A stretch of 64,000 nt of DNA from an uncultured Gemmatimonadota bacterium (GCA_951812955.1 OX638340.1:3680001-3744000); one strand, 5' to 3'. Positions 6,966 through 49,706 are shown, numbered from the stretch's first letter. Translations and numbers: made by a program. Notes: generated by a model not told the origin, from the letters alone.

Positions 6966-6983
6966 GGAGGGTGTTTCCGAGAA

Positions 6984-8105
6984 TCAGGGCGTTACGATCT
7001 TGACCCGCGTGCTGTCCTTCATGCTTCGGTGCCCGGCGATGACGATCCGGTCACCGGGATTCAGCCCTTCTTCAATCTCTACGAAATCGGCGTCCTGCAA
7101 GCCCAGGCTGAGTTCGGCGCGGACCGCCAGGCTGTCGTCCACCACGGTAAAGACGTTGTTGTCGTCCAGCAAGGCGATCTTGGGAATCAGCAGGACGTCC
7201 ATGTGCTGGTCGGCGAGTATCTTGACGCGGACGAACATGCCGGGTTTCAAACGCCAGCCGGGGTCGTTAATCCGAATCGTTACCTTGAAGGTGCCGTTCT
7301 GCGGGTTGATGATGGGACTTACGCGGAAGATCTTCCCTCCGAATTCACCGTCGGGAAGGGTATCGGTTTCAAGCACGACGTCCTGGCCCGCGGACACGTG
7401 GGCCCACTCCATCTCAGGCAGGTACGTGTAAATCAGCAGGGTGTTCAGATCCACCAGGGTGAAGAGGGCGTCGCCCGTCCTGGCCATGTTGCCCACATTG
7501 AGATGCCGTTCGGTTATCGTGCCGCTGAAAGGAGCCTTGATAGTGGTTTTGTCGTACGACACCTTGGCGGACTCCCAGTCCGCCTGGGCCATGATGTACT
7601 CACGTTCCTTGCCTTCGTGGTCCACTTCGCTGATGAGCTCGCCTTCCAGCAGGGCGACAGACCGGTCGAACTCCTGCTTCCGAGCCTGTCTGATCGCCTC
7701 CGCCCGTGCCAGGGCGACTTCTTCCTCGGCATGTTCCAGGACGGCCAGCGTCTGGCCCTGCTTAACGTGGTCCCCCTCCTGAACCAGGATATTCTCGATC
7801 ATCGCGGTGGTTCGCGGGAATATGCGGGCGTCGCGGTCCGCTTCCACCGTGGCGGTCGTCAGGATGACGTCGGAAATGGTACCCAGGGAAGCGGAAATCA
7901 CGTTCACGGGGACGGGGGGCGGAGCGGTGGAATCCGCCTCGGCCTCGCCTTTCTTGCCTTCGTCCGGGCTATCACCCGTGCCGGAACTGGCGTCGCCGCA
8001 TCCGGAAGCGACGAAGGCCGCGAAGATCACAAGGAGGAACAGCCGGTGTAACTTCATTCCGCTAAGACTGGATCGCATCTGCCTCATTTTCGCTCCCTGT
8101 AACAA
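6984..8105 (-). CDS. Efflux RND periplasmic adaptor (membrane fusion protein, HlyD/AcrA family)
   Basis: Lipoprotein-like N-terminus (LLVIFAAFVASGCGD). Lipoyl/beta-barrel MFP signature (IFPRTTAMIENILVQEGDHVKQGQTLAVLE). Sits immediately upstream of two RND genes on the same strand. Confidence 0.85.
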   Translation of the reverse strand: MLQGAKMRQMRSSLSGMKLHRLFLLVIFAAFVASGCGDASSGTGDSPDEGKKGEAEADSTAPPPVPVNVISASLGTISDVILTTATVEADRDARIFPRTTAMIENILVQEGDHVKQGQTLAVLEHAEEEVALARAEAIRQARKQEFDRSVALLEGELISEVDHEGKEREYIMAQADWESAKVSYDKTTIKAPFSGTITERHLNVGNMARTGDALFTLVDLNTLLIYTYLPEMEWAHVSAGQDVVLETDTLPDGEFGGKIFRVSPIINPQNGTFKVTIRINDPGWRLKPGMFVRVKILADQHMDVLLIPKIALLDDNNVFTVVDDSLAVRAELSLGLQDADFVEIEEGLNPGDRIVIAGHRSMKDSTRVKIVTP

Positions 8106-8118
8106 CCTGAATCGACCT

Positions 8119-8176
8119 CTTGAATTATACGCGAGTCACGTATTGTATACATCATTTAATGACTTCAATTCAAAGG
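8119..8176. promoter_or_regulatory. Composite concentric palindrome in AT-rich region upstream of efflux operon (candidate operator)
   Basis: ttgaatt(8120-8126)...gtca(8135-8138)...tgtataca(8144-8151)...tgac(8160-8163)...aattcaa(8168-8174). All symmetry centres fall at ~8147-8149. This is a locally AT-rich island in a 65% GC genome, ~20-80 bp upstream of the MFP start. Confidence 0.35.
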
Positions 8177-8476
8177 AAGTTCCCGTTAAACTGTACGTAA
8201 GACTTCCGAATGTGGAGTTAAGTTACAGAAAGTTCGGACTTAAACTGTCTGCGCTCCGGATTACGCCGCATGTTGTTGGACGGACGGTGTCTTTTTCCGG
8301 TTTACGCTACGGCCAGCCGAGATTCGAAGTACAGGTCCATTACCCGGCGACCGCTGGCGACCTCGGCAGGAACAGCGATGGGGGCGTCGGAAACGTACTC
8401 GCTGGAGTATCAATTCCCGTGGGCAGGCAGGGAAAGAAAAACGCCATCGTCAAGCGCGGCTGAAACGGCACTACCC

Positions 8477-9316
8477 TCATCCGGCCGCCGCCAGCAACCG
8501 CTCCATGTTACCGCCCAGGACGAGGTCCATATCCGCCTTTGCAATGAATGAACAGTGCGTTCGGACGGCTTCCAGCGAATGCTGATAGGTGCTCGCCCGC
8601 GCGACCGGCGGGTAGTTGGACGCCCAGCACATGCGTTCCGGGCCGTAAGCCTCATAGAGCTTGCGTACGATCCACATGCAGTCCGAATAGGGATATTCCC
8701 ACGCGGTCTCCGAGGTGTATTGAAAGCCGGACAGCTTGATGTGGATATTGGGTACGTCAGCGGAGTTCAAAACCTCCTGGAGCAACGGACGCGGCGGAGG
8801 TTCTCCGACCTTCAAACTGGCCATGTGATGGCATAGGAAAGGTACCGTCGGAAACCGGCGCGCGAGCTTTCGCAGGGCGGGCATCCAGGCCGGACTTAGA
8901 GCCAGGGACGCGATCTGGTTGAGTTCGGCAGCTTGCTCGAAAAACGCGAGTCCTTCACTGGATTCGAACCAGTCAAAGTCGTCCCGGAGATAGTGGGTAA
9001 ATCCCTTCAACCGGTATTTTTCGACGGCCTCCGCAAGCCTTCCCGCACCCCCCGGTGTATGGTAGGTGTCGGTCCAGCCGCAGTCCACGTCGGCGAACTG
9101 GACGAACCGGTCCGGGTACCGGCGGACGCAATCCGCCCCGTAGTCGTTGTTCCCGGGATTGTGTTCGATCCGGGCGCAGACCAGCACCGCCTTGTCCACC
9201 CCCACCGTGTCCATTTCATAAAGCAGCATCTCCGCCCGGCCCCGGTTCTCCGGATCCGGGACTGCCGGTTCGTAGGGCCAGAAGTCCCATGCATGGGAAT
9301 GACAGTCGATGATCAT
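8477..9316 (-). CDS. Amidohydrolase-2 family metal-dependent hydrolase (TIM barrel)
   Basis: N-terminal IDCHSHAW motif and overall amidohydrolase_2 (PF04909-like) pattern, 279 aa. Confidence 0.7.
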   Translation of the reverse strand: MIIDCHSHAWDFWPYEPAVPDPENRGRAEMLLYEMDTVGVDKAVLVCARIEHNPGNNDYGADCVRRYPDRFVQFADVDCGWTDTYHTPGGAGRLAEAVEKYRLKGFTHYLRDDFDWFESSEGLAFFEQAAELNQIASLALSPAWMPALRKLARRFPTVPFLCHHMASLKVGEPPPRPLLQEVLNSADVPNIHIKLSGFQYTSETAWEYPYSDCMWIVRKLYEAYGPERMCWASNYPPVARASTYQHSLEAVRTHCSFIAKADMDLVLGGNMERLLAAAG

Positions 9317-9398
9317 GGTTGTATTCTCCTTTGTTCAGGTACGCGCCAAGGGTTTCTGTTGCTTCTGTTCGGGTTTCCGTGGCCGGGGATATCCGTAT

Positions 9399-10283
9399 TC
9401 AATTCCGATTGACTACCCAGAGTCCGGCCGCCAGCAGCGCCAGGCCGCCGGTGAGGTACGTGGTCACCTGGTCGCCGAGGATCAGCCAGCTCAGGAGGAC
9501 GCCGAAAAGGGGTGTCGTGAAGAAAAAAGCGCTGATCTGCGTGGCGCTGTGACGCTGCAGCAGCCGTATCCATACGAGAAAGCAGAAACCGGCCACGATG
9601 GCGCCCTGGTACAGCACCGCGGCTACGATGCCAAGGTCTATCGTGACCGGGAGGTGCCATTCGGTCGATATCCAGAGTATGGTGAATATTGGCAGCACGA
9701 CCACCTGTTGCCAGAAGATCACCGCCACGGGGGAGATGCGCCTGACCAGCACCTTGTTGATCATGATCTGGATGGCCAGGCTGACGGAGCTGAGCAGGAC
9801 AAGCACATCGCCCAGGGGTGTCGAAGGACCGCCCGCTTCATCATAAATGGTCAACACCATGCCGCCGCCGGCCAGGACCAGGCCGACAAGCTTCATCGGT
9901 GTCAGGCGATCGCCTGGAATGATGAAATGAGCGATCCCGGCGACGACGAACGGGTAGGTCTGCATAAACAGGACGGCGTGGCTTCCCGAGGTCTGTTCCG
10001 CGCCGATATTCAGGAACAGGATCTGCGCGGCCATGACGAGGGCGGGCACGGCGATGATCAGGCGGTCGCCCCGTGCCACGTAGAGCGAGACGCCGGCCAG
10101 CCGCGTCCACGTGTAGACGCACACCAGGGCTACGCCGAATCGCAAGACCGCCAGGAGGACCGGCGGGATGCCCTCCAGCCCCACTTTTACCGACACGACC
10201 AGGCCGCCCCAGAGCGTACACAGCATCAGTACGAGCAGCACGGGTCTCGTAGTCAGCGGCTGGTTTTCGTCGATATGGCTCAC
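9399..10283 (-). CDS. EamA/DMT family transporter
   Basis: 294 aa with ~10 TM segments and a duplicated EamA-type hydrophobic pattern. Confidence 0.7.
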   Translation of the reverse strand: MSHIDENQPLTTRPVLLVLMLCTLWGGLVVSVKVGLEGIPPVLLAVLRFGVALVCVYTWTRLAGVSLYVARGDRLIIAVPALVMAAQILFLNIGAEQTSGSHAVLFMQTYPFVVAGIAHFIIPGDRLTPMKLVGLVLAGGGMVLTIYDEAGGPSTPLGDVLVLLSSVSLAIQIMINKVLVRRISPVAVIFWQQVVVLPIFTILWISTEWHLPVTIDLGIVAAVLYQGAIVAGFCFLVWIRLLQRHSATQISAFFFTTPLFGVLLSWLILGDQVTTYLTGGLALLAAGLWVVNRN

Positions 10284-10368
10284 CCGGGCCGGCCTTTTGC
10301 GGGAGGTAGACAGCGAGAGGAAACGGCAGGGCGTGATTATACGGCCTCAGAATGCATGGAGGCAATGT

Positions 10369-11418
10369 TTAAGTTCGGGGCCGGGCATCCATGCGCTGGA
10401 AACGCAGGGCCACGTTGACCAGCGCGATCATGACCGGTACTTCAACGAGCGGGCCGATGACGGCCGCGAAGGCCACGCCTGATTCGATGCCGAAGACCGC
10501 CACGGCCACCGCGATGGCCAGTTCGAAGTTATTGCTTGCGGCGGTGAAAGAGAGCGTGGCGTTCTTCGAATAGTCCGCGCCGATCTTCCGTCCCATCCAG
10601 AAGGTGATCAGGAACATGAGCACGAAATAGACCAGGAGGGGCAGGGCGATGCGGATCACGTCCAGTGGGATGGCCACGATCGTGTCGCCCTTCAGGCTGA
10701 ACATGACCACGATGGTGAACAGCAACGCGGCCAGGGTAATGGGGCTGATGCGGGGTATGAAGGCCGTCTCGTACCACGGCCTCCCCTTGATCCGCAGCAG
10801 GATCAGGCGCGTCGCCATGCCGCCGAAGAACGGGATGCCCAGGTAGATCAAAACGCTTTCCGCGATCTGTACGATCGTAACCGGAACGACACTCCCCTCC
10901 AGTCCGAAATAGGGCGGCAGGACCGTAATGAAGACGTAGGCGTACACGCTGTAGAAGAACACCTGGAACAGGCTGTTCAAGGCTACGAGGCCGGCGGCGT
11001 ACTCCGTGTTTCCCTTCGCCAGTTCGTTCCACACGATGACCATGGCGATGCACCGGGCCAGGCCGATCAGGATCAGGCCGGTCATGTATTCGGGATGTCC
11101 GGGCAGGAAGAGCGCCGCGAGACCGAACATCAGTATGGGGCCCACGATCCAGTTCAGGAAAAGGGACGCGCCGAGGATCCGCACGTTTCGGAACACGTCC
11201 CCCAATTCCTCGTACTTCACCTTGGCCAGCGGTGGATACATCATCAGAATGAGCCCGATAGCGATAGGCAGGTTGGTCGTGCCCACCTGTCCCAGCTGGA
11301 TCAGGGCGGGAACCTCCGGCGTCCACACCCCGAGGCCGACGCCCAGGCCCATGGCCAGGAAGATCCACAGGGTCAGGTAACGATCGCGCAACGATAGTCG
11401 TTTCGTCGTGGATTCCAT
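10369..11418 (-). CDS. acr3: Arsenite efflux transporter, ACR3 family
   Basis: 349 aa, ~10 TM, with ACR3-family conserved blocks ([50 protein letters not shown]). Downstream of arsR-arsC. Confidence 0.85.
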
Positions 11419-11480
11419 TTTTACTCTCTGGTTGATTTCCTAAGAGGACCTATGCCTGTCTTGTGCGATGAACCGTATAC

Positions 11481-11614
11481 GCGTCATGATGAACGATATA
11501 GGCGTCATGATGAACGATATAGGCGTCATGATGAACGATATAGGCGTCATGATGAACGATATAGGCGTCATGATGAACGATATAGGCGTCATGATGAACG
11601 ATATAGGCGTCATG
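11481..11614. repeat. Perfect 21-bp tandem repeat x6 (gcgtcatgatgaacgatatag) plus degenerate flanking copies, between arsC and acr3
   Basis: Copies start at 11481, 11502, 11523, 11544, 11565 and 11586. A partial copy sits at 11607 and a degenerate copy at ~11460. The last copy overlaps the arsC stop codon (11610-11612). On the minus (mRNA) strand each unit reads ATGACGCCTATATCGTTCATC, which is M-T-P-I-S-F-I. Confidence 0.95.
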
Positions 11615-12263
11615 CGATCCCGACCCGCTTGAACAGCCAACCCATCTCCCGACTGATCTCCCGGCATCGTTCGTCGTATATGTCAGTCTCCCGGTCCGTT
11701 CCGTCGGAGGACCTCGGATCTTTGTAGGGAATGAGTATACGTTTGTCGGCGCCGTATACCGCGGGACAGTTGCGGTCCGCGTCCGAACAGGTCAGGACCG
11801 CGCAGAAACGGTCCGGGGGGTTCGCGGGATCCAGGAAAGTCTTGGAGAACGCGCGCACCGGGGAAAGTTCTGCCCCGGGATGGACGAGGTAGACCGGGTT
11901 TTCTCCTGTCGAGTTTCGTTCGATCCGAAAACCCGCCCGGACCAGCGCCGATACGGCCCTCGGATCGAAAGCGGAGACTTCGGTGCCGCCCGAGAAGGCG
12001 GATATCATCGGTACGCCGAGAAAGCGCGCCATGGTCTGTGCCCAGATCTGCGCAATCTGACTCCTGCGGGAATTGTGGGTACAGATAAAGGTGAGCCGGG
12101 CCGGTTCGCCGCTTCCGATCTTCGCCGAGGCGTATGCAGCAACGGATTCCAGCTCCTTCCTTCGTTCTGTAGAGATCAGGCTGGATTCCGCCATGCGGGC
12201 CTTGAGATAGCGATGGAGGGCCGGGTACAAGGTGGTACAGGTATCGTGAGGGGGCGGTCTCAT
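11610..12263 (-). CDS. arsC: Arsenate reductase, LMW-PTPase/thioredoxin-coupled ArsC type
   Basis: P-loop CTHNSRRSQ (CX5R) and a C-terminal fold matching LMW-PTP ArsC. Its 4-bp start overlap with the arsR stop suggests translational coupling. Confidence 0.8.
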   Translation of the reverse strand: MRPPPHDTCTTLYPALHRYLKARMAESSLISTERRKELESVAAYASAKIGSGEPARLTFICTHNSRRSQIAQIWAQTMARFLGVPMISAFSGGTEVSAFDPRAVSALVRAGFRIERNSTGENPVYLVHPGAELSPVRAFSKTFLDPANPPDRFCAVLTCSDADRNCPAVYGADKRILIPYKDPRSSDGTDRETDIYDERCREISREMGWLFKRVGIA

Positions 12264-12688
12264 CGCTCCTCCCGCGAAAGCATGGACCGGTCGAAAAAAG
12301 CCGGATCTTCCCGGTCGTCTGCCTGGAGTTGGGCCAAGGAGGGCTGAGGCACGCAGATTTTGCCTTCACCGGCCAGTCCGCGCAACCGGTCCAGGTCCGC
12401 CAGGATCCGTTCGTGTACCTGCCGGGCGGAGACCAGGTAAACCGTCACGTATTTCAGGGCGATGGAAGAGTCTCTGGCCAGCGCGTAGTAGATCCAGACT
12501 CCGTCGCGGCGGCCCGTGAGCAGACCGGACTGCTTGAGCACGGCCAGGTGCCGGGAGATTTTGCCCTGGGGCATATCCAGCACGGCCATGATTTCGCACA
12601 CGCACAGTTCCCGCTCGGTCAGCAGGAACAGGATGCGGAGGCGCGTGGCGTCCGAACAGGCTTTGAATACGGCAAGATCGTTGTCCAA
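12260..12688 (-). CDS. arsR: ArsR/SmtB family metalloregulator
   Basis: MDNDLAVFKACSDATRLRILFLL...ELCVCEI is a wHTH with the ELCVC metal-binding motif. It apparently uses a TTG start and has a C-terminal extension. Confidence 0.85.
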   Translation of the reverse strand: MDNDLAVFKACSDATRLRILFLLTERELCVCEIMAVLDMPQGKISRHLAVLKQSGLLTGRRDGVWIYYALARDSSIALKYVTVYLVSARQVHERILADLDRLRGLAGEGKICVPQPSLAQLQADDREDPAFFDRSMLSREER

Positions 12689-17741: not shown

Positions 17742-19622
17742 TTAGACGATGACTTCCTGATAGGGCACGAATATGTCCGTCTGACCGGCCAGCAGTTCCT
17801 TGACGCCGTCCACGATATGATGGGGCATGAACGGTTCGCCGTCGTACTTCCGGATGTGTCCTTCGGCCGTCAACCCGGTCTCGCCGCGCAGATAGCGATG
17901 GAACTGGCCGGAATGGTTGTTTTCCACGATCACCGTGCGCTTCGCGCTGGCAAACACTTCCGCTATGGCCTCCGCATGAAGCGGGACGATCCACTTGACC
18001 GGCAGATGGTTTACGGCGATGCCGTCACGGTTGAGAATTTCCACCGCTTCCCTGATCACGCCGTGGGTCGAACCCCAGCCGATGAGCGTGATTTCGGCGT
18101 CGGCGGCATCGGCGCCTGAAAGCGTGGGCGGTTCAATGCGCCTCGCGACATCCTTGAACTTGCGGGCCCGCTTTTCCACCATCTTGCGTCGCTTGTGGGG
18201 ATTGGTGAACTCATCGCTGACCAGGACACCGTCTTCATCGTGCTCGTCCGTGGCCACAACGTGGGCATATCCCTCCACGCCCGGGAGCGCGCGGGGAGAA
18301 ATGCCGCTATCGGTGTTTTCGTACCGCAGGTAACCGTTGCTCGGTGCGCCGATGAGCCCGTGCCCGTTGGCCTCCTGCGATCCCGTTGGTATGTCGCTCA
18401 CGCCGTTCCTGGATTCGGTGATCAGTTCGCCCCGGTCAATTTCAGGCTGCATATCGATGGCCTCTGGGTCGACGCTGAAGGTGCCTTCGGAGATCAGCAG
18501 ATCCGAGATCACGATGCCCGGGCACTGGAAGTGGTCCACCAGGTTAAACAGTTCGGGCATCGTATTGAAGGCGTCAAGCGCATCGGTCGGCGCCACGATG
18601 AAGCGCTCGAAATCTCCCTGGCTCGCGCCCAGAATCTGCCAAAGGTCGCCCTGCTCCGTCTTGGTGGGCACGCCCGTGGACGGTCCGGCGCGCTGCACGT
18701 CGATGAAGACGACCGGTATTTCCAACATCGCCGCGCTGCCCACCGCCTCGGTCATCAGGGCGAATCCGCCGCCCGACGTCGCGCACATGGACCGGCAGCC
18801 CACGTGAGCCGCGCCGATCGCCATGTTGGCCACGCCGATCTCGTCTTCGACCTGACGTACCATGATACCCAGTTCCCGGGCGTTCTGCGCCATCCAGTGG
18901 AGGACGCCGGTGGATGGACTCATGGGATAGGCACAGTAGAACTTGACCCCGGCGGACGCGCCGCCCATGGCCAGCGCATCGTTGCCCGTCCATACCGCCA
19001 GCGGCTTTCCGCCGGAGGGAACGGCAAGATTGAAATGTTCGAAATGCTCTGCGGCGTAGTCGAATCCCGCGCGTGCCACGCCCACGTTCTCGTCGACGAC
19101 TTCCTGGCCCTTGCGCTGAAACTGCATGGTGATGATCTCTTCCAGGATCTGGAAGTCCATGCCGAGCAGGTTGAGGATCGTTCCGAGGGCGACGGTGTTC
19201 TGCACCAGCTTGTTCCGGTTGTTGTCGGTCAGTTCGCCGATGGGAAGCGGACACAGATGCACGCCGTCTCCCGGGCTGCCCGGCGTAATGGTGTCGCCAT
19301 TGTATATGACCCGCGTGCCGGGACCCATGAGCCCCAGGTGCCGGTCCATCGTATCCTGGTTCAGGCAGACCAGCAGGTCGAGTTTGTCGCCATGGTTATG
19401 AACCGGCCGATCACTGATCCTCATCGTGAGGAAAATATGACCGCCCCGGATGATCGACTGGTAGGCATTGTAGGCGTTGAGATGCAGTCCGCGTCGGATG
19501 AAAATCCGGGCGAGCACGTTGCCCGGCGTGGCGATTCCCTGGCCTGCCGCACCGCCTATGGCAATGGCAAAGTCGAATCTTTCTGAACTCATCGGTTGCT
19601 CCTGTCTGTACATCAAGGACAA
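17742..19622 (-). CDS. korA: 2-oxoacid:ferredoxin oxidoreductase alpha subunit (fused gamma-alpha)
   Basis: 626 aa with N-terminal gamma-like FAIAIGGAAGQGIATPG, then alpha-domain blocks (KFYCAYPMSPSTGVLHWMA). Immediately upstream of korB. Confidence 0.9.
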   Translation of the reverse strand: MSLMYRQEQPMSSERFDFAIAIGGAAGQGIATPGNVLARIFIRRGLHLNAYNAYQSIIRGGHIFLTMRISDRPVHNHGDKLDLLVCLNQDTMDRHLGLMGPGTRVIYNGDTITPGSPGDGVHLCPLPIGELTDNNRNKLVQNTVALGTILNLLGMDFQILEEIITMQFQRKGQEVVDENVGVARAGFDYAAEHFEHFNLAVPSGGKPLAVWTGNDALAMGGASAGVKFYCAYPMSPSTGVLHWMAQNARELGIMVRQVEDEIGVANMAIGAAHVGCRSMCATSGGGFALMTEAVGSAAMLEIPVVFIDVQRAGPSTGVPTKTEQGDLWQILGASQGDFERFIVAPTDALDAFNTMPELFNLVDHFQCPGIVISDLLISEGTFSVDPEAIDMQPEIDRGELITESRNGVSDIPTGSQEANGHGLIGAPSNGYLRYENTDSGISPRALPGVEGYAHVVATDEHDEDGVLVSDEFTNPHKRRKMVEKRARKFKDVARRIEPPTLSGADAADAEITLIGWGSTHGVIREAVEILNRDGIAVNHLPVKWIVPLHAEAIAEVFASAKRTVIVENNHSGQFHRYLRGETGLTAEGHIRKYDGEPFMPHHIVDGVKELLAGQTDIFVPYQEVIV

Positions 19623-19994
19623 GCTGATCTGCCGACGTACGCACGAGTTGTTATTTAGGTATCACGAACGAATAGCGGGAACCAACAAGATACACACTGC
19701 CCTGTGGAGTGTCAACCATTCCTTATGTTTCTTGGGTACAGGCTGCTCCATGGCCCATCGGGTGCCTGCAGCAGGCCATTTTTTGTCGGCGACAGGTAAC
19801 CAGAAAAAACCTAAGCCGCGCTCATGCCCAGGCGTTATTCTACCTTGACACCGGCAGGAATACACCGCTTTATTTTTGATCGAAATCCACCCGTTCATCC
19901 CGAACGGGACCCTGCGCAAATCGGAGTTCGGCCGCGCCCTGCGCATTGCCTCGAACACGAACAACGCGTAAAACAAGTATATCGGGATAGGAAA

Positions 19995-20768
19995 ATGAAC
20001 GGCGCCGAAATCGTACGTCGGTACGAAGAAGATGGTTACGTCGTCGTGCCCGGGGTCATCGACAGCGAGCTGACCGCCGAGGCGCAGGGACATATCGAGT
20101 GGATGGGAGAGAAACACCCCGATGTCCGCCCCGAACAGTACCATCACCACCTGATCGTGGACGATCCGTTCTGGATACGACTTTGCACCGACCCTCGGCT
20201 CATCGACGTCATCGAACCGTTCCTGGGTCCCGATATCGCGCTCTTCGCGGCGCACTACATCAGCAAGCCGCCCCGGGACGGGCAGCCCGTACTCTGGCAC
20301 CAGGACGGGAACTACTGGCCGCTGGAGCCCATGGAGGTCATCACGATCTGGCTGGCCGTGGACGATTCGAACCCGGAAAACGGATGCATGCGGGTCGTCC
20401 CCGGCAGCCACCGGGACCAGAACCTGTTCAAACACCGTGCTTCGGACGGGGAAAACGTGTTGCGTTCGGAACTCGATCTGAAGGTGGATGAATCCACTGC
20501 GGCGGACGTCGTCGTGCCGGCGGGCGGCGTTTCGCTGCACGATCCCTACCTGATTCACGGCTCTGAGGCCAACCGGTCCGACCGTCGGCGATGCGGGTTG
20601 ACCCTCCGGTATATCCCCACGACCACGCGTATAAAGCGCGAGAACTTCCCGGCCTACCTTTGCCGCGGCAGGGCGGTGGAGGGCATCAACCACTATCCCC
20701 CGCTTCCCCGCTTCCGTGCCGGCGAACACTATCCCTTTAACGGGTGTGACCGGCCGCCGTGGAACTGA
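19995..20768 (+). CDS. Phytanoyl-CoA dioxygenase (PhyH) family Fe(II)/2-oxoglutarate oxygenase
   Basis: MNGAEIVRRYEEDGYVVVPGVID...WHQDGNYWP...HGSEAN shows the PhyH family pattern with an HxD...H facial triad. Start was chosen at the internal Met (the ORF opens at 19824). Confidence 0.8.
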   Translation: MNGAEIVRRYEEDGYVVVPGVIDSELTAEAQGHIEWMGEKHPDVRPEQYHHHLIVDDPFWIRLCTDPRLIDVIEPFLGPDIALFAAHYISKPPRDGQPVLWHQDGNYWPLEPMEVITIWLAVDDSNPENGCMRVVPGSHRDQNLFKHRASDGENVLRSELDLKVDESTAADVVVPAGGVSLHDPYLIHGSEANRSDRRRCGLTLRYIPTTTRIKRENFPAYLCRGRAVEGINHYPPLPRFRAGEHYPFNGCDRPPWN

Positions 20769-20780
20769 CCGGACCTTCGC

Positions 20781-22139
20781 TCAGATTATCCCCATATCCT
20801 TCAATTCCTGCCTGACCGCGTACATGGCGCCTTCGGATGCCAGGACCCATAGACGGTCCCCTGGAGTCAGCCTGCGCATGATGTCGTGAAACACGTCGCT
20901 GACATCCGCTGCCGCGGCCATTTCTTCCGCGTCCATCTGCTCGTCCATCAAGGCCAGGTGCGCCCCGCCCGCGCCGGCCACGTGCACGGACCTCGACCGG
21001 TCCGCCATCCCATCCAGATCGTCGTCAGAGATCCACGGTCCGTTTCGTCCGTCACGTACGGCCTCGTCAAGCAGAAACAGGTAGTGGCCCCGCCGCCGGT
21101 CAAGCAGGCAGGTCCTGAGCGCTTCATGGAGCGAAGTCCTGTTCTTGATCGTCAAAAGGCGTGCTTCCCGCTCATGGATCACCACCCGCTCGTCCCGCCC
21201 TCCGATGGACGTTACGGACTCGAGACCCTTGCGTATCGACACGGGACTCAGGCCGAGCGTGATCGCGGCGGCCGCCGCGGCCGCCGCGTTGTACACGTTG
21301 TGGAGCCCGGTTAACCGAAAGCGCACGTCCAGGGGACCCCGAGGGGTGATGAGCCGGAAGTTCGATTCTTCCGATCCCAGGTCCACGTCGATCGCGTAGA
21401 CCGTGGGCAACGGCCTTTCCCAACCGCAGCCTTCGCACGCGTAGTCGCCCAGATGGGCGAGACAGGTGATTCGGTAGGTCAGGGGAACGCCGCAACGATG
21501 GCATGGCACCTCCGGAATGGACGAATCCGCCAATTGCAGGCGCTCATCCTCCACACCGAAGTAGGTCAGCCGGGGCGGCACGCCGCGCGTGAATCCGCCG
21601 CAGAGGACCGGATCGTCTGCGTTTACGAGGATGTTCTGTCCGGCGGTCATGGTGCCGAACCAGTTGCACCATTCCCCAGCCAGGGCAATAGCGTCGACCC
21701 CCTGGCTCAGTTCATCGTCGTACAGATTGTTCAGTACGAGCGTGCGGGGACCGCATACCCTGATCGCCCTGCCAAGTATGCCGGTTTCGAAACCGAATAC
21801 GCCGTAGTCCGCATGGATTTTGCCACGCCGGTCGGTCGCCCGGACCAGGGTTGAGACGACCTCGTCGACGGAAGGCGCGATGTCTTCAGGGTAAAGCGTG
21901 CGTGCGTCGGCCTGCCGGAGAATCGCGGCCAGGATCCTGCAGGTCGTGTGCTTGCCGTTTGTCCCGGTAACTCCGACGACGCCTTGCTGGAACTGACGCA
22001 CCAGTGATCGGGCCAGACGCGGCCAGGCAGCGGCGGTGAGGGTGCCCGGCGGGATGCGTCCGCGGGAGAAATCAAACAAATCGGCCGCCTTCGCGACGGA
22101 CTTGTCAATCGAAAGGGCGGCCGATTGGAGTATACGCAT
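20781..22139 (-). CDS. Mur ligase family protein, MurT-like (Mur ligase central domain with Cys4 zinc ribbon, then DUF1727-like C-terminus)
   Basis: GVTGTNGKHTT P-loop. Zinc-ribbon CHRCGVPLTY...CEGCG. The C-terminal domain resembles DUF1727 of MurT. No GatD-like amidotransferase is adjacent. Confidence 0.55.
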   Translation of the reverse strand: MRILQSAALSIDKSVAKAADLFDFSRGRIPPGTLTAAAWPRLARSLVRQFQQGVVGVTGTNGKHTTCRILAAILRQADARTLYPEDIAPSVDEVVSTLVRATDRRGKIHADYGVFGFETGILGRAIRVCGPRTLVLNNLYDDELSQGVDAIALAGEWCNWFGTMTAGQNILVNADDPVLCGGFTRGVPPRLTYFGVEDERLQLADSSIPEVPCHRCGVPLTYRITCLAHLGDYACEGCGWERPLPTVYAIDVDLGSEESNFRLITPRGPLDVRFRLTGLHNVYNAAAAAAAAITLGLSPVSIRKGLESVTSIGGRDERVVIHEREARLLTIKNRTSLHEALRTCLLDRRRGHYLFLLDEAVRDGRNGPWISDDDLDGMADRSRSVHVAGAGGAHLALMDEQMDAEEMAAAADVSDVFHDIMRRLTPGDRLWVLASEGAMYAVRQELKDMGII

Positions 22140-22174
22140 AGGAGGTTGATCAATGCCGGGGAATCAACCCTTGG

Positions 22175-22582
22175 TCATATCTTTACGCCGCGCCATTCGT
22201 CCCTGTCACCGGAAATATCGACAATGTTTCCGTCGGGATCGATGGCCTTGAAAGCGATCTCCGGCGGGGTATCGGAGGAGATGGCGTCGCGGCCCTTAAC
22301 GGTCTTCGGCGCTTCCGCTCCCCAGTTCCGGACCCTGTGCCAGGCGGCGTGGAGATCGTCAACCAGCACGCCGAAATGAATGTACTCCTCGCCTTCCTCT
22401 AGCGTCGGCCGCGACGGATCGTCATGGGGCAATAGCGTGATATTTGCGGTTCCGTCACTGAGATCGACCGCTTCGCCGTTTCCCCGCCGGCCGATGAAGT
22501 CAAAACCGATGACTTCCTCGTAGAAACGCCGCGAGACCGCCACGTCCCGGCACCGAAGTGCCAGGTGACGCAGAAAAGCCAT
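22175..22582 (-). CDS. VOC (glyoxalase/bleomycin-resistance/dioxygenase) family protein
   Basis: 135 aa with a betaalphabetabetabeta module pattern (FLRHLALRCRDVAVSRRFYEEVIGF...IHFGVLVDDL). Confidence 0.7.
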   Translation of the reverse strand: MAFLRHLALRCRDVAVSRRFYEEVIGFDFIGRRGNGEAVDLSDGTANITLLPHDDPSRPTLEEGEEYIHFGVLVDDLHAAWHRVRNWGAEAPKTVKGRDAISSDTPPEIAFKAIDPDGNIVDISGDRDEWRGVKI

Positions 22583-22638
22583 ATCGTGATCCTCCGGATG
22601 CTACCGCCTATTGCCCGTAAAGCGGGAAACCGCCTGGC

Positions 22639-24063
22639 TTAGAGCCGCTTCTCTTTGGCTATTTCCTCGATGGCGCCGATGAACTGGTCGGTCTGGGCAT
22701 CGGTCACCATGACGTGCATCGACGTCCGGTTGGCGTCCCAGTTGATCTCGTCGTGGGTGACGTTCCGGATGTAAATACGGTGGCGTTCCCACAGTGTGTT
22801 GTTCAGGTCTCGGGTACTCACGCCACTGACCTTGAACGATACCAGCGCGGCACTCATGCGCGGGTCCGGCGAACTGTAGACGTCGACACCGTCCATGTTG
22901 CGCAGGGCGTTGGCTACCCGTGTGGCCTGGTGGCGGTTCCGGCTTTCGATGGCCGCCGGACCGATCATGTTGTGGAAGTCCAACGCGGCGTCGATGGCGA
23001 CGCGCGCCGGGGCGTTCGAGGAACCCCGCAACTCGAACTTGGCAGCTCCCGCCAGGTATTCGTCGTAGTACACCTTGGCGAAGCCCGTGGGTTCCAGACC
23101 GTACATGGTGAGTCCGTTCACGGGGCCGGAATACAGGGTCGGCCACACACGGTCCACGATGTCCTCTTTCACGTAGAAGAAACCGGTGTACATGGAGGCC
23201 ATCATCCACTTGTGACACGGACCCGCGTACATGTCGCAACTCAGGTCGTGCATGTCGAGGTCGAGCATGCCCGGCGGTTGCGCCCCGTCTACCAGGGTCA
23301 GGATGCCCTTGGACCGGGCCATCTCACAGATTTCCTTCACGGGAAGGACCAGGCCGTCGCCGTAATTGACATGGCAGAAGCTGAGCAGCTTCGTCCGCGG
23401 CGTGATGGCGGCCTCGAAGGCCTTCAGCAGCATATCGGGATTGTCGGGCGGATGGAAATCCGGGGAGGACAGGTCGATCATCACGGTCTTCGTCCCCTGC
23501 CGTGCCGCCCGGAGATTGATAGGCTGAACTCCGCTGGAGTGATCGTGGTTGGTCGTCACGATCTCGTCGCCCGGTTCCATGTCGATACCGAATGTGCCGA
23601 AGTTCATGCCCTCGGTCGTATTGTTTGTGAAGGCGACCTCGTTCGACTTGCAGCCGATGTACTTCGCCATCTTATTGCGCATATTCGTCCGGAAGTCGCT
23701 GTTGTAGACGTAACTGGTGTAGCTCTTGTAGTTCGAGTTCGCGCCTTCCATCGCGGCGACCTGCGCCCTGTGCACCGGACCGGGGGACGGTCCGCGCGTA
23801 CCGGTGTTCATGTAGGACACGCCATCGCGGATGATGAACTGGTCGGCCACCCAGTTCCAGTACGCCACGTCATCGGGTTCCGGAAGATGGTCTTCGGGTA
23901 TAGGCGGCTTGGCCCCGGCTTTTCCGGCCATGGACAGCAATGCGGTTCCCGCGGCGAGCCCTCCAGCGATTCGACCGATGAAACCTCGCCGGGACAGTGC
24001 TTTCAGCTTTTCCGAATCTTCGTATTTCGGGTCGAAATTTAAACCGGTCTCTTCCGTAATCAT
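22639..24063 (-). CDS. Class V aminotransferase-fold PLP-dependent enzyme with Tat signal peptide
   Basis: Twin-arginine motif SRRGFIGRIAGGLAAGTALLSMAGKAGA. The class V fold pattern is present (TTEGMNF...LLSFCHVNYGDG...DMYAGPCHKWMMA). Start was chosen at MITEETGL; the ORF opens further upstream at 24231. Confidence 0.75.
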   Translation of the reverse strand: MITEETGLNFDPKYEDSEKLKALSRRGFIGRIAGGLAAGTALLSMAGKAGAKPPIPEDHLPEPDDVAYWNWVADQFIIRDGVSYMNTGTRGPSPGPVHRAQVAAMEGANSNYKSYTSYVYNSDFRTNMRNKMAKYIGCKSNEVAFTNNTTEGMNFGTFGIDMEPGDEIVTTNHDHSSGVQPINLRAARQGTKTVMIDLSSPDFHPPDNPDMLLKAFEAAITPRTKLLSFCHVNYGDGLVLPVKEICEMARSKGILTLVDGAQPPGMLDLDMHDLSCDMYAGPCHKWMMASMYTGFFYVKEDIVDRVWPTLYSGPVNGLTMYGLEPTGFAKVYYDEYLAGAAKFELRGSSNAPARVAIDAALDFHNMIGPAAIESRNRHQATRVANALRNMDGVDVYSSPDPRMSAALVSFKVSGVSTRDLNNTLWERHRIYIRNVTHDEINWDANRTSMHVMVTDAQTDQFIGAIEEIAKEKRL

Positions 24064-24299
24064 GGTGTATCTCCCAAGTGATGCCTCCGGCGCGCTCATG
24101 CAGTTAAACCGGTGTAGGCCACCGCGGCAGACCGTGCCAGGGGATCTGGAAATAAGGCTATTGTAGCGAGAATCTGTAAAGAGAGTATACAGGGCACCGA
24201 AGGGGGACTTCAAGTAAAAACTGCATTTCACGGGATTTGCGGCCGGATGGTTCCGATTTCTGGTTGCGGGGTGCCGGAAACTCCGCTTACTTGATAGGT

Positions 24300-24389
24300 G
24301 CCTGTTCGATCTTCAAAGGCAATTCCATCGGGGATAGCTGGATATAGTTGCCCGTTCGATTTTCGAGTGTAGTTCTATCGGGGAAAGCT
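24300..24389. repeat. Two imperfect ~40-bp direct repeats in divergent intergenic region
   Basis: cctgttcgatcttcaaaggcaattccatcggggatagctgg (24300-24340) versus cccgttcgattttcgagtgtagttctatcggggaaagctcg (24348-24388), ~75% identical with 48-bp spacing. They lie inside a ~430-bp intergenic region. Confidence 0.6.
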
Positions 24390-24492
24390 CGATTCGACCG
24401 CTCCGAGCCGGAAGGCAAGTGCATACAGTCCAGGGGCGACTACCAGTCACCGGCCGCCCATATCCGCCGCGAAGCCAGAAAGGGTATGCTAC

Positions 24493-25620
24493 GTGAAAAT
24501 CGAAGACATCGCCTCGTATTTCATCGGAGGCGGGTACGTCATCCGCATCCGGACCGACAGCGGCCTCACCGGGGTGGGCCAGACCGCCTGCTGGGGATAT
24601 CCGGAAGCCGTACACCAGATCGTTGAGCGGTTCAAAGACTACCTGGTGGGACAGGACCCCTTCCGCATCGAGCATCACTGGCAGTACCTCTACCGCATGT
24701 CGCCCTTCCGGGGAAGCGCCTTGTCCGGTGCGGTCAGCGCCGTCGATATCGCCCTGTGGGATATAAAGGGGAAGCACTTCGGCATACCGATCTGGGAGTT
24801 GCTCGGCGGGAATTGCAGGGATAGAGTCAGGCTTCATCTGCTGGGTGGCGGCGGCACCCCGGAGGCCATGTACGAATCCGCGCGCAACGCGGCGTCGGAG
24901 GGCTTCACGGCGCTCAAGTTCGATCCCCTGCCGGGCGGCTACCAGGACATGGCCCTGGACCGGATGATACGTACCGCCCGGGATCTCGTCGCGGCAGCCC
25001 GGGACGGCGGCGGCCCGGACATGGATCTCATCGTGGAGGTCCACCGCAAGTTGACCCCGTTGACCGCCATGCCACTGGCCAACGCCCTGACCGAATTCAA
25101 CCTCTATTTCATCGAGGATCCCATCCAGATCGACAGCATCATGGCCCAGGGCGAAATCGCGCGGCGGATCGGTATCCCCGTCGGGAACGGGGAACGCCTG
25201 AACACCATTTGGGAATTCCAGGAACTCCTGGCCCACGGCGGACCGCAATACGTGCGGCCGGACGTGGCCCTGGCGGGCGGCCTGACGCACTGCAAGAAGA
25301 TCGCCGCCATTGCCGAGGCCCATCACTGCGCCGTCGTCACCCACAATTTCCTGACGCCCCTCATCACCGCCGCTTCCGTTCACCTGGACACCTGCATACC
25401 GAACTTCGTGACGCAGGAGTACAGCATGGGGGACGAATCGGAGGCCAGCACGGTGTACCGGACCAACATCCGGCGGGAAGGCGGGTACATACCGATTCCC
25501 CGCGATCCGGGCCTGGGTGTCGAACTGGATGACGAATTGCTGGCCGGCGCGGCGTTTTCGCCAATGAATACCGCGAATACGTTGCTCAGGTCGGACGGTT
25601 CGGTGGCCAACTCGGTCTAA
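24493..25620 (+). CDS. Enolase-superfamily enzyme (mandelate racemase/muconate-lactonizing family; sugar-acid dehydratase-like)
   Basis: Capping domain followed by TIM barrel. AVDIALWDIKGKHFGIPIWELLGG and KFDP...EDP...GER metal-ligand blocks. Confidence 0.8.
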   Translation: MKIEDIASYFIGGGYVIRIRTDSGLTGVGQTACWGYPEAVHQIVERFKDYLVGQDPFRIEHHWQYLYRMSPFRGSALSGAVSAVDIALWDIKGKHFGIPIWELLGGNCRDRVRLHLLGGGGTPEAMYESARNAASEGFTALKFDPLPGGYQDMALDRMIRTARDLVAAARDGGGPDMDLIVEVHRKLTPLTAMPLANALTEFNLYFIEDPIQIDSIMAQGEIARRIGIPVGNGERLNTIWEFQELLAHGGPQYVRPDVALAGGLTHCKKIAAIAEAHHCAVVTHNFLTPLITAASVHLDTCIPNFVTQEYSMGDESEASTVYRTNIRREGGYIPIPRDPGLGVELDDELLAGAAFSPMNTANTLLRSDGSVANSV

Positions 25621-26573: not shown

Positions 26574-28238
26574 GTGAAACGCATATTGCTTTTGATCAAC
26601 CATCACAGGCCGCCGTTCAGCCAGTTCGCAGCCATGTTCGAACGGGTCGTGAACGGCGCTTCTCATTTCAAGCTGGAGGTAACCGACGACCGGGACGCGC
26701 TGTGCGACCTGTCGGATTACGACGCCGTGGCGCTGTACATTGCGGCCGGAGAACTGAGCCGGGAGCAGGAACAGGGGATCACCGGCTACGTGCGGAACGG
26801 GGGCGGGCTGCTGGCCGTGCACACCGCGAACGCGGGACTGGCGAAATACGCCGACTACATCGAGATGATCGGTACCGAATTCATCGGCCACGATCCACTG
26901 GGCGACTTCGACGTGGAAATCGATCCGTCCTTCGACGACATCCTGCCGCGTCTGAGCCGGAGTTTCCGCGTCGAAGACGAATGCTACAACATGGACATCA
27001 AGACGGAGGCGCCGCTCAAGTGGTTCCAGCACGGGATCTGGAAACTCGAACGCAAACCCCTGGGATACGTGCGGGACTACGGGAAGGGCAGGATATTCTA
27101 TACGGCCCTCGGCCACGACAACCGGGCCTTCGTCCACCCCGATTTTCAGGACCAGTTGATCAAGGGGCTGCGGTACGTGTGCGGGATGGCCGACGGATCG
27201 CCCGTCCGCATCGGACTGGTGGGATACGGGCCACTGTTCGGCATGGGGAAGCACCACAGCGATCAGATCGCCGCGACCCGCGGTTTCGAGCTGGGAGCGG
27301 TCTGCGACCGGGACCCCGCCCGGCTGGAAGCGGCGCGGGAGGAGCAGGGCGACCACGTGCCCATGTTCCAGGATGCTGCGGAAATGGCCGGGAGCGGGTT
27401 GGTAGATCTCGCCATCGTCATCGTCCCCCACGCCTATCACGCACCCGTCGCGAAGCCCCTGCTCGACGCCGGCCTGCACGTCATCACGGAGAAACCCTTC
27501 ACGGTCAAGGTTTCCGAGGCGGACGAACTGATCGCCCTGGCCAGGGAACGGGGCGTCATGATCTCCGTGTACCACAACCGGCACTGGGACCCGGATATCC
27601 TTTCCATGAAGGAGATCGTCGGCAGGGGCGATATCGGAGAGGTGTATTCCATAGAAAGCGCCCTGGTCGGATACGGCCTGCCGGGCCAGGCGTGGCGATC
27701 CGAAAAGTCGATTTCCGGCGGGGCGATGTACGACTGGGGCGCCCACAATTTCGAGAAAATCCTTCAGCTGGTGCCGCGGTACGATGGCCAGGGAAACCGG
27801 ATCAACAAGCGGGCTACTCTCTTCGGAAACTACATGAAACGGGTCTGGCACAGCGTCACCAACGAGGATTACTGCCGGGCGTACGTCCGTTTCGATTCGG
27901 GCCTGGAGGCCCAGTTCACGACCTCATCCATCCATGCGTCCCGCAAGCCCATGTGGACCGTCCAGGGGACCGGCGGATCGATCGTCATGGAGGGGGGCGA
28001 CGGCGCGGGCACGGTGACGATGGCCAGCGCGGACGGACGCCACCGGGCCGTGGAGGTCAAACCCTATGACCGTGGCCATAACTGGCAAGGCTACTACAAG
28101 AACGTGGCCGACCACCTGCTCTCCGGCCTTCCCCTGGAAATTACCGGGGAATGGGCAAAGGGACCCATTCAGTGTGTCGAGGGTTGTGAAACGGCTTCGA
28201 GAGAGAATAGACTGGTGGAAATCGAATTCGATTTCTAG
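26574..28238 (+). CDS. ThuA-domain / Gfo-Idh-MocA oxidoreductase fusion protein
   Basis: The N-terminal ~210 aa is ThuA-like (GGGLLAVHTA...FYTALGHD). The C-terminal ~340 aa is a GFO/IDH/MocA Rossmann domain plus C-domain (VRIGLVGYGPLFGMGKHH...EKP). Confidence 0.75.
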   Translation: MKRILLLINHHRPPFSQFAAMFERVVNGASHFKLEVTDDRDALCDLSDYDAVALYIAAGELSREQEQGITGYVRNGGGLLAVHTANAGLAKYADYIEMIGTEFIGHDPLGDFDVEIDPSFDDILPRLSRSFRVEDECYNMDIKTEAPLKWFQHGIWKLERKPLGYVRDYGKGRIFYTALGHDNRAFVHPDFQDQLIKGLRYVCGMADGSPVRIGLVGYGPLFGMGKHHSDQIAATRGFELGAVCDRDPARLEAAREEQGDHVPMFQDAAEMAGSGLVDLAIVIVPHAYHAPVAKPLLDAGLHVITEKPFTVKVSEADELIALARERGVMISVYHNRHWDPDILSMKEIVGRGDIGEVYSIESALVGYGLPGQAWRSEKSISGGAMYDWGAHNFEKILQLVPRYDGQGNRINKRATLFGNYMKRVWHSVTNEDYCRAYVRFDSGLEAQFTTSSIHASRKPMWTVQGTGGSIVMEGGDGAGTVTMASADGRHRAVEVKPYDRGHNWQGYYKNVADHLLSGLPLEITGEWAKGPIQCVEGCETASRENRLVEIEFDF

Positions 28239-47180: not shown

Positions 47181-47190
47181 GGCGTATCGC

Positions 47191-47682
47191 CTATTCCTTG
47201 TAGTTGACCATGACGGAACCCAGGGTACCGCTGGTAAAAACGCTTTGATCCTCGATCAGGGCGTGTTCCTGCAGGATGAAGAACATATCGTCGTTCGAGA
47301 TCGTCTGCTGGACGGCCGGCGTATCGACCGGCCTGATCGACTGCCAGATCAGCCCGCCGGCCACCAGTAAAAGCGTGGCAGCGACTGCGATGTATTGACG
47401 GGGCTGCTTGGTGCGCGACGCATCCCTTTTTTTCATGCCCGGAACCATATGGGCGTGTGTCGTGCGTTCCAGAATCGCAGTCTGGACTTCCGCTGCCACC
47501 ACCGCCGTGGGCTTCTCCAGGCGGCAGCAGCGCAACATGCCGCGGACGGACTGCAATCCGCGCAATTCCCGCGCGCAACCGGGGCAGGACTCGATGTGCC
47601 GCGCGATTTCGGCGACTTCCTCGTTGCCGCACATGCGCTCCAGGTAGAACGTGAGCCGTTTCTTTATCTGGTTGCAGTTCAT
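47191..47682 (-). CDS. Anti-sigma factor, zf-HC2 type (RseA/ChrR-like), single TM
   Basis: The N-terminal H-x3-C-x2-C motif (HIESCPGC) is the zf-HC2 anti-sigma domain. There is one TM helix (YIAVAATLLLVAGGLIW). It starts 9 bp after the sigma stop. Confidence 0.8.
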   Translation of the reverse strand: MNCNQIKKRLTFYLERMCGNEEVAEIARHIESCPGCARELRGLQSVRGMLRCCRLEKPTAVVAAEVQTAILERTTHAHMVPGMKKRDASRTKQPRQYIAVAATLLLVAGGLIWQSIRPVDTPAVQQTISNDDMFFILQEHALIEDQSVFTSGTLGSVMVNYKE

Positions 47683-47691
47683 GGCTTGGTC

Positions 47692-49469: not shown

Positions 49470-49706
49470 GGTGCTCCGGCTATGCTGAGGCGAAGCCGCA
49501 ATCGCCGTCGGGGAGCCCGTCCCGGCATGGCGACGACCGCCGTATATCGTGTTCTGCCAGTGACGTTTCAGGAAGGTCAAACGCTCGCACGCCTGGCCGC
49601 GTCATCTGGCTGTTAAGTATTATGGTCGTGATACCGAAAATCGGCCGTATCCTGCCGCATGTCAAGCAGGAATGAATGGACCGTGCGCTTATTGATCCTG
49701 CCCGGG

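Follow-up and report, generated by a model that had tools for sequence, protein, structure and literature searches.

What does a MurT-like Mur ligase do in a genome region that lacks its partner GatD, and why is it packed against two enzymes of other families? The question is raised by three minus-strand genes at positions 20781-24063 of a 64,000-nucleotide stretch of DNA from an uncultured Gemmatimonadota bacterium (GCA_951812955.1 OX638340.1:3680001-3744000; the whole stretch is called the window below). Calling of open reading frames (ORFs) in the window, together with Pfam searches, confirmed the positions and identities that had been read from the sequence alone in an original prediction: a class V pyridoxal phosphate (PLP) enzyme, a protein of the vicinal oxygen chelate (VOC) family and the ligase, separated by gaps of 56 bp and 35 bp, respectively. 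Whereas that prediction joined the three genes in one dedicated pathway, we think it rather likely that they were brought together by deletions that included gatD, and that a fast-diverged MurT was kept as a stand-alone ligase, which would probably use ammonia. Comparison of related loci and proteins shows the deletion of gatD, the orthology of the ligase to murT, the loss of constraint on the Asp that MurT contributes to the GatD catalytic triad, the retention of the ATP site and the action of purifying selection; what the ligase catalyzes today is argued more cautiously below.

The ligase and its missing partner

The ligase gene (20781-22139, minus strand) encodes 452 amino acids, in which a Mur-ligase central domain with the P-loop GTNGKHTT, a Cys4 zinc ribbon (C213, C216, C235 and C238) and a divergent MurT_C region can be recognized, while a UDP-binding N-terminal domain is missing. 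In Pfam, the central domain matched Mur_ligase_M with 39.5 bits and the C-terminal region matched MurT_C with 21.3 bits, under the cut-off of 25. The best NCBIfam model was that of MurT (NF045635, 114.5 bits), followed by the archaeal pMurC model NF053645 (109.7 bits, covering only residues 51-322, i.e., the central domain); NF052464 gave 94.4 bits, and the scores of NF045635 and NF052464 stayed under their thresholds of 800 bits. For all classical Mur ligases, as well as for FolC, CfbE and cyanophycin synthetase, scores were far lower than for MurT and pMurC, and FolC, CapB, cyanophycin synthetase and CfbE were rejected as identities of the ligase because their matches did not go beyond the level of the P-loop. 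The top sequence matches in the PDB were the MurT proteins of Streptococcus pneumoniae and Streptococcus pyogenes (6fqb, 1e-28; 9sq9, 7e-27). An AlphaFold2 model built on 23 relatives reached a mean predicted local distance difference test (pLDDT) score of 84 and a predicted template modelling (pTM) score of 0.87; when it was compared with the PDB by Foldseek, the best 13 matches were all MurT chains of MurT/GatD complexes (E 3e-27 to 7e-23), pMurC (6vr7) ranked 14th, and MurF, MurE and MurC came next, with FolC, CapB and cyanophycin synthetase not near the top. As modelled, the ligase is of the MurT structural class, and its description as MurT-like has thus held.

The same is true of the missing glutaminase. 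When the window was searched by tblastn with the GatD proteins of the three nearest GatD-containing relatives, no gatD came up (best E ~1), and no GatD was found in the flanks of 21 related loci (10 kb on each side in 18 of them, shorter flanks in three). The Mb-scale contigs of this lineage likewise carry no member of the set of 120 proteins that are most similar to the nearest GatD. The 21 loci, with a ligase at 75-98% identity, were obtained from a scan of one genome per species, and belong to metagenome-assembled genomes (MAGs) deposited as Gemmatimonadetes or Candidatus Latescibacterota, several of them complete chromosomes of 3.7-3.9 Mb; to judge by the isolate names (APA_, IRC1_, Plut_), the hosts may be sponges and corals. 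A baseline came from a metagenome scan in which the alignment of the GatD-less clade was used to look for transitional forms, and in which 76 of the 80 loci carried a canonical MurT, the transitional locus L040 being among the other four. Of the 58 other MurT loci whose downstream sequence was long enough, 55 have gatD downstream on the same strand, either adjacent or after one methyltransferase gene. This intervening gene of ~720 bp, which separates gatD from murT at many canonical loci, was considered as a VOC candidate before it turned out to be the methyltransferase. One metagenome contig (Ga0126312_10003774, locus L095) encodes a canonical MurT, with D349, P323 and W354 intact, and no gatD within 2 kb upstream or 6 kb downstream; it may be a case of unlinked gatD. 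Our literature search on orphan or stand-alone MurT found no description of one.

The gene order of related loci points to how gatD was lost. In the window, the PLP gene, the VOC gene and the ligase gene follow each other as described, and a junction of 12 bp (20769-20780) separates the ligase stop from the stop of a convergent PhyH-family gene, at the site where sister lineages carry gatD. At locus L118, a 214-kb contig, the PLP gene (its product 82% identical to that of the window) is followed by genes for a BlaI-like repressor, a 734-aa protein with tetratricopeptide repeats (TPR) and a thioredoxin domain, a histidine kinase and GGACT (opposite strand), then by VOC (74%), a 392-aa TPR protein, MurT (52%), GatD and the convergent PhyH (81%), and further on by POR, NrtR (67%) and TauE (70%). 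There, the PLP gene lies 6 kb from the VOC gene, with four unrelated genes in between. Locus L040 has VOC (77%), a spacer of 442 bp, MurT, GatD and convergent PhyH (78%), and 46 aa of the TPR protein are still encoded in the spacer as a remnant (E 3e-15). Since the sister loci are syntenic but longer, the compact array of the window is what remains after deletion of the intervening genes and of gatD. The ligase occupies the syntenic slot between VOC and the convergent PhyH, as murT does in the murT-gatD loci L118, L040 and L009, and by this position it is the orthologue of the gatD-linked murT.

The ancestral order was VOC-(TPR)-murT-gatD next to a convergent PhyH gene; in the GatD-less lineage, the loss of gatD and of the genes between PLP, VOC and murT left three unrelated neighbours packed in the manner of an operon. 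The original prediction had noted that a gatD adjacent in related genomes would make the case one of ordinary lipid II amidation. Such a gatD does stand beside the orthologues at 45-52% identity, but not within the GatD-less lineage, which has also lost the triad Asp. In a neighbor-joining tree, the GatD-less clade is sister to a GatD-linked divergent clade, and both stand apart from canonical MurT. The protein P0332 is a sequence intermediate with canonical motifs.

Freed from serving GatD, the ligase diverged much faster than its neighbours. It is 52% identical to the MurT of L118, against 67-82% for the neighbouring proteins, and compared with the outgroup P0030, it is 46% identical while the GatD-linked P0025 is 63% identical. 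The pairwise ratio of nonsynonymous to synonymous substitution rates (dN/dS), calculated over 22-23 orthologues, is 0.17 for the ligase, 0.07 for VOC, 0.09 for the PLP enzyme, 0.06-0.10 for the neighbours and 0.17 for a DUF1189 membrane protein; a value for PhyH was discarded as an artefact of partial or paralogous matches. Over the domains of the ligase the ratio is even (0.14-0.19). The clade includes members in which the ligase is only 62% identical to that of the window and the gene order is the same, and this, with the purifying selection, indicates that the gene has been retained for long without gatD. From these rates it is not a pseudogene, and after the deletion it remained under purifying selection.

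Conserved residues and possible activity of the ligase

Residues below carry Staphylococcus aureus MurT numbers unless the query is named, the numbering having been checked on the 7q8e alignment through a canonical MurT (DNAAD at 342-346, D349 being the Asp of DTSW). D349 completes the triad of GatD with Cys94 and His189, and D349N abolishes or severely reduces the activity of S. aureus MurT/GatD (PMC6113224). In the 42 sequences of the GatD-less clade, this position is unconstrained (N in 31, D in five, T in three, and G, Y and K in one each; N366 in the query), and the surrounding MurT motif DG.D[TV]SWIWD reads DGRNGPWISD. D349 is kept wherever it was compared outside the clade: in 8/8 GatD-linked divergent proteins, in 76/76 canonical MurT from metagenomes and in 144 of the top 149 representatives from a library of 1.84 billion proteins, where the members without it were only three fragments of the GatD-less clade itself and one poorly aligned protein. 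Other positions changed along with it: S351P and P323R are fixed (42/42), W354 is variable, T60 is replaced by H in 39/42 and E113 by T in 38/42. P323 and W354 are both present in 76/76 canonical metagenomic MurT. The eight GatD-linked relatives, at 43-52% identity, keep D349, S351, W354 and P323, have T, S or C at position 60 and keep E113 only in part. At the MurT Mg2+ and acceptor positions T60, N85, E108/E110 and D112-E113, the query reads H64, P89, G116 and E118-T119, and the loop equivalent to MurT 135-143 (RDQxDRxGE) is rewritten and modelled with low confidence. Loss of N85 is common to both divergent clades, as is loss of E110 with the exception of one member (it is lost in 7/8 of the GatD-linked proteins); these two losses are therefore older than the loss of gatD.

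By contrast with the triad position, the nucleotide-binding core (G58, K59, N132, D136, N270, N273, G303, R304, E306, K321 and N322) and the four cysteines of the ribbon are invariant in the 42 clade sequences. The ligase has thus lost the triad Asp, and the residues around it that are invariant wherever gatD was kept, whereas the hinge Arg, the zinc ribbon and the nucleotide core were retained.

By analogy with MurT, the ligase may still be an ATP-dependent amide ligase that would convert a carboxylate to an acyl phosphate and then join it to free ammonia or a small amine without a glutaminase, a possibility that we take seriously but hold only tentatively. In the ancestral enzyme, the carboxylate would have been the alpha-carboxylate of D-iso-glutamate in lipid II. 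A precedent for the donor exists in S. aureus, where the synthetase site of MurT takes free NH3 at pH 8.5, independently of the catalytic Cys of GatD (PMC3266927).

Several points weigh against a free-standing, ammonia-using enzyme. In the same S. aureus system the GatD protein is still required when ammonia is the donor (PMC3266927). Residues that are essential in MurT are replaced in the ligase (T60 by H, E108/E110 by G, E113 by T and N85 by P), T60A, E108A, N85A and D112S/E113S being inactive in characterized MurT (PMC6113224, PMC6085368), and given these replacements catalysis by the ligase is not assured. Both E110G and the missing N85 are also seen in the GatD-linked relatives; throughout the divergent clade, the acceptor may be something other than lipid II. 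The dN/dS of the ligase is the highest among the soluble proteins of the region. Moreover, the searches for gatD covered the window, the flanks of the loci and the 120 best GatD relatives, and a distant gatD elsewhere on the chromosome is conceivable. Finally, we know of no MurT that is active alone.

Some of the same observations would fit a non-catalytic remnant, a pseudoenzyme whose activity was lost after gatD and whose remaining role would be structural, regulatory or one of binding. T60H, E108/E110G, E113T, N85P and D349N sit where mutation kills MurT, the rewritten loop is the one modelled with low confidence, the C-terminal 133 amino acids, when searched alone against the PDB, match nothing at E<=10, and no soluble protein of the region evolves faster. 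However, purifying selection is uniform over all domains of the ligase, and the whole nucleotide-binding set is invariant in the 42 sequences, which diverge from each other by as much as 38%. Relatives that keep gatD also have E110G and lack N85, and these two changes are presumably compatible with activity. We consider such a remnant unlikely.

A changed function is also conceivable, although we regard it as doubtful: the orphan MurT, independent of GatD, would be neofunctionalized and not a leftover, and would join ammonia or another amine to a carboxylate, perhaps one that is not part of lipid II any more. Already in the divergent FCB-group clade as a whole, the acceptor-contacting Asn85 and the Mg-binding Glu are missing. 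The orphan MurT may work with the VOC protein, whose gene an invariant hairpin spacer of 35 nt ties to that of the ligase.

The VOC gene, the PLP gene and their non-coding sequences

The spacer between the VOC gene and the ligase gene (22140-22174) contains GGGUUGAUU, a 10-nt loop and GAUCAACCU, which form a 9-bp hairpin at 22143-22170 on the minus strand with a minimum free energy of -9.1 kcal/mol. The 3' arm stops 4 nt ahead of the ligase ATG, the hairpin covers the position expected for the ribosome-binding site, and at this start there is no Shine-Dalgarno sequence, the leader reading CCUCCU. The 35 nt are nearly invariant in 23 distinct sequences, including members with a 62%-identical ligase, and they are almost unchanged while synonymous sites nearby are ~50% saturated. 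In the covariation analysis, all cells were paired and three one-sided changes retained pairing; no double compensatory change was found among the clade sequences. The motif occurs once in the window. It is plausible, but not proven, from this pattern that the spacer acts as an RNA structure, and the VOC gene is probably co-transcribed with the ligase gene, whose translation start would be embedded in the conserved hairpin. A possible start of an antisense ORF opposite the ligase start (AGGAGG, 7-nt spacer, ATG) was dismissed, as it is not conserved and its ATG falls in the variable loop.

The VOC protein itself (22175-22582, minus strand, 135 aa) matches Glyoxalase PF00903 with 42 bits (cut-off 20.6), but no subfamily was reached in NCBIfam, with 28.7 bits for glyox_I (cut-off 120) and 17-22 bits for the Fos models (cut-offs 180-275), and its best PDB match was at 3e-5. 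Its gene is among the best conserved of the region, and an orthologue with 74-77% identity is present in the gatD-containing sister loci. On this evidence it is a generic, cytoplasmic, single-domain member of the superfamily.

The PLP enzyme (22639-24063, minus strand, 474 aa) matches Aminotran_5 PF00266 with 144 bits. The active-site check that the original prediction proposed gave a clear answer: the PLP lysine K285, D259 and R433 are invariant in 116 homologues. The position of the SufS catalytic Cys is occupied in the family by D, E, P or K and never by Cys (D438 in the query), and all NCBIfam matches stay far under their cut-offs (140 bits against 475 for SufS; 125.5 against 650 for PvdN, NF051467). 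The twin-arginine translocation (Tat) signal SRRGFIG that had been reported was found at residues 24-30. It is part of a predicted signal peptide of residues 1-51 (23911-24063, minus strand), in which an N-region NFDPxxED (NFDPRFED in the family) precedes the motif S24-R-R-G-F-I-G30 and a hydrophobic stretch leads to a putative cleavage site between AGA and K. The motif [ST]RRxF[LIFM] is present in 113/120 family members, and R25 and R26 in 114/116 aligned sequences. As far as these motifs tell, the protein is an exported PLP enzyme and not a desulfurase. The view that periplasmic PLP enzymes are uncommon was overstated: PvdN and PtaA are characterized Tat-exported periplasmic PLP enzymes (PMC6206403), and the orthologous family of ~470 aa is widespread, with 55-60% identity to members named Binatia, Pseudomonadales and Gammaproteobacteria.

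These data bear on the original proposal that the PLP enzyme, the VOC protein and the ligase form one dedicated pathway acting on an envelope or small-molecule carboxylate. In its favour, all members of the GatD-less clade with flanking sequence have the trio side by side on the same strand (in the short contig L010, at least VOC and ligase), the VOC-ligase spacer is exceptionally conserved, and the nearest GatD-linked lineage, too, has a VOC gene close to murT. However, the adjacency arose by the deletion of unrelated genes in between, and since the 20 related loci with upstream sequence are colinear with the window over 12-20 kb, it adds no information within the lineage; outside this one lineage, the three genes are not co-conserved. 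Orthologues of the PLP enzyme at 57-60% identity (one family member is named Pseudomonadales) stand at other loci among unrelated neighbours with no VOC or Mur-ligase gene, and the GatD-linked MurT relatives have no adjacent PLP gene. By prediction, the PLP enzyme is exported by Tat, whereas the ligase and the VOC protein have no signal peptide and would be cytoplasmic. In contrast to the VOC-ligase spacer, that between the PLP and VOC genes has lengths of 56-385 bp among relatives. A single pathway is thus very improbable, and the PLP enzyme is, to judge by its distribution, an independent member of a widespread family of Tat-exported periplasmic enzymes. For the reading of operons from sequence this is a caution, as a tidy array of three genes can be the scar of deletions and not a pathway. 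Ordinary amidation of lipid II by MurT/GatD with gatD encoded elsewhere in the genome is hardly credible, for although sequence and fold both match MurT best, and the canonical L095, which keeps D349, also lacks gatD within 6 kb, the triad-Asp position of the ligase is unconstrained, S351, W354 and P323 are changed, no close GatD is found on the Mb-scale contigs of the clade among the 120 best matches, and gatD is missing exactly at its orthologous position.

Upstream of the PLP gene, the ~430-bp leader of the original prediction is right in its length but not in its nature, as 24064-24492 is a divergent intergenic region that reaches to a plus-strand MR_MLE dehydratase gene starting at 24493, and not a long 5' untranslated region (UTR). 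The PLP ORF is open over 22639-24231 (minus strand), with the real start at the ATG at 24063, because length and N-terminus then equal those of all homologues and a conserved GGAGAT ribosome-binding site precedes it. A putative sigma-70-like promoter, TTGAAG-18-TATACT (24213-24184, minus strand), was picked up by a consensus scan ~120 nt upstream of this ATG, and is kept in all aligned relatives, including the locus with a 62%-identical ligase. In the scan for promoters and terminators, counts were not above shuffled expectation, and this promoter was the only one to gain support, through its conservation; "terminators" within genes were dismissed. An Rfam search of 19500-25000 gave no match at E<=1, i.e., no known riboswitch or leader. 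Upstream of the promoter there is a further block of conserved sequence, CAAGTAAGCGG..CCCCGCAACCAGAAATC, and in the 5' UTR of the PLP gene (24058-24185, minus strand) a partly conserved long-range stem, in which CCUGGCACGG pairs with CCGUGCCGG, is weak (consensus -6.7 kcal/mol, with little covariation). The intergenic region measures ~260 to ~730 bp among relatives, and ~100 bp of it in the window are a 50-bp x2 tandem duplication at 24294-24393 (78% match); the greatest intergenic length (~430 bp) is that of the window together with the two relatives closest to it (L012, L029).

Wider region and comparison with known systems

On the other side of the array, the ligase-PhyH junction, 12 bp in the window, measures 18-125 bp in relatives, and at nine of these loci (L016, L018, L020-L025 and L028; locus ~11357-11480) the site of the missing gatD holds short direct repeats, e.g., CGGCGTCAGTTCCAGGGCGGC-like units, which may be a trace of the deletion process. 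The PhyH-family dioxygenase gene (19824-20768) and a ThuA-GFO/IDH/MocA fusion (26574-28238) flank the locus; in L118, PhyH paralogues occur in two copies with DUF481 between them. A TPR protein is encoded directly upstream of murT-gatD in two GatD-linked lineages, in L118 (region 6841-10747) with 392 aa, and as a 1021-aa fusion of spermine synthase and TPR with a 4-bp gap to murT in the Zixibacteria locus (L003/L004), and there may be an association of TPR, MurT and GatD. Farther away in the window, a 21-bp x7 tandem repeat (11467-11614, 97% match) lies between an Acr3/SBF-type transporter gene (10369-11418) and genes that are putatively arsC/arsR-like (11610-12688), an assignment resting on sequence reading and synteny with L001, with no Pfam match for 11610-12263. 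At 48492-49580 (minus strand), a gene of 362 codons fuses an HU-type DNA-binding domain to a long TPR array and adjoins genes for an extracytoplasmic function (ECF) sigma factor, a zf-HC2 anti-sigma factor and a MucB/RseB-like protein (46041-48363). A 425-aa ORF at 60739-62016 contains two tandem repeats (at 60987-61108 and 61334-61728), one of 102 bp x3.9 and one of 54 bp x2.3, and has no Pfam family and an atypical codon-position GC; its coding status is uncertain.

MurT/GatD is regarded as an enzyme that cannot do without either of its two proteins, and as a target for antibiotics; in S. aureus, MurT depends on GatD also in the presence of added ammonia. The GatD-less lineage, in which purifying selection on MurT has continued long after gatD was deleted, is a natural experiment, in effect a natural version of the inactivating D349N with remodelled surroundings. 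Such a case is relevant to the abilities of MurT by itself, to the question of which of its residues are there for the partner and which for ligation, and to how a two-subunit amidotransferase decays or adapts during genome reduction in host-associated bacteria.

Among characterized proteins, the PLP enzyme resembles PvdN and PtaA, which act in pyoverdine tailoring, in its class V fold, in its predicted Tat export with PLP bound and in the lack of the desulfurase Cys, and the PDB match to PvdN includes the signal region; unlike them, it has no pyoverdine cluster and belongs to a separate orthologous group of ~470 aa. The central domain of the ligase scores almost as high against pMurC (6vr7) as against MurT (109.7 versus 114.5 bits); however, pMurC is archaeal, has an extra N-terminal domain and shows neither synteny nor orthology with it. 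With the MurT/GatD systems of S. aureus, S. pneumoniae, S. pyogenes and Mycobacterium tuberculosis (6gs2, 6h5e, 7q8e, 6fqb and 9sq9), the ligase shares the architecture, the Lys of the P-loop, the Asn residues of the adenine pocket, Gly-Arg at the hinge and Lys-Asn in the KNP loop. It differs from them by the absence of a GatD partner, by D349 being N or variable, by S351 being P, P323 being R and W354 variable, by the rewritten RDQxDRxGE loop, and by its host, which, from the MAG record names, would be a Gram-negative-type bacterium of the Fibrobacterota-Chlorobiota-Bacteroidota (FCB) group.

The nearest relatives of the ligase, at 43-52% identity, are the divergent MurT/GatD pairs of metagenomic bacteria of the Zixibacteria and Latescibacteria type (P0025-P0032 with P0092-P0109; loci L003-L009, L040 and L118). 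They share with it the loss of N85, the loss of E110 (7/8), the 'NLY.D' loop variant, and motifs such as YFGVEDERL and CGWERP, and the closest of them (L118, L040 and L009) have VOC and/or PhyH neighbours as in the window. They also lack the RDQxDRxGE loop, which, like N85 and E110, is essential or invariant in characterized MurT. Unlike the ligase, they have gatD immediately downstream, and they keep D349, S351, W354 and P323 as well as T, S or C at position 60. A model for the function that we propose for the orphan MurT is found in another family: NAD synthetases exist as glutamine-dependent enzymes and as the NH3-dependent NadE, a synthetase without a glutaminase that takes ammonia directly, and it is to such NadE-type enzymes that the ligase of this lineage may have become comparable.

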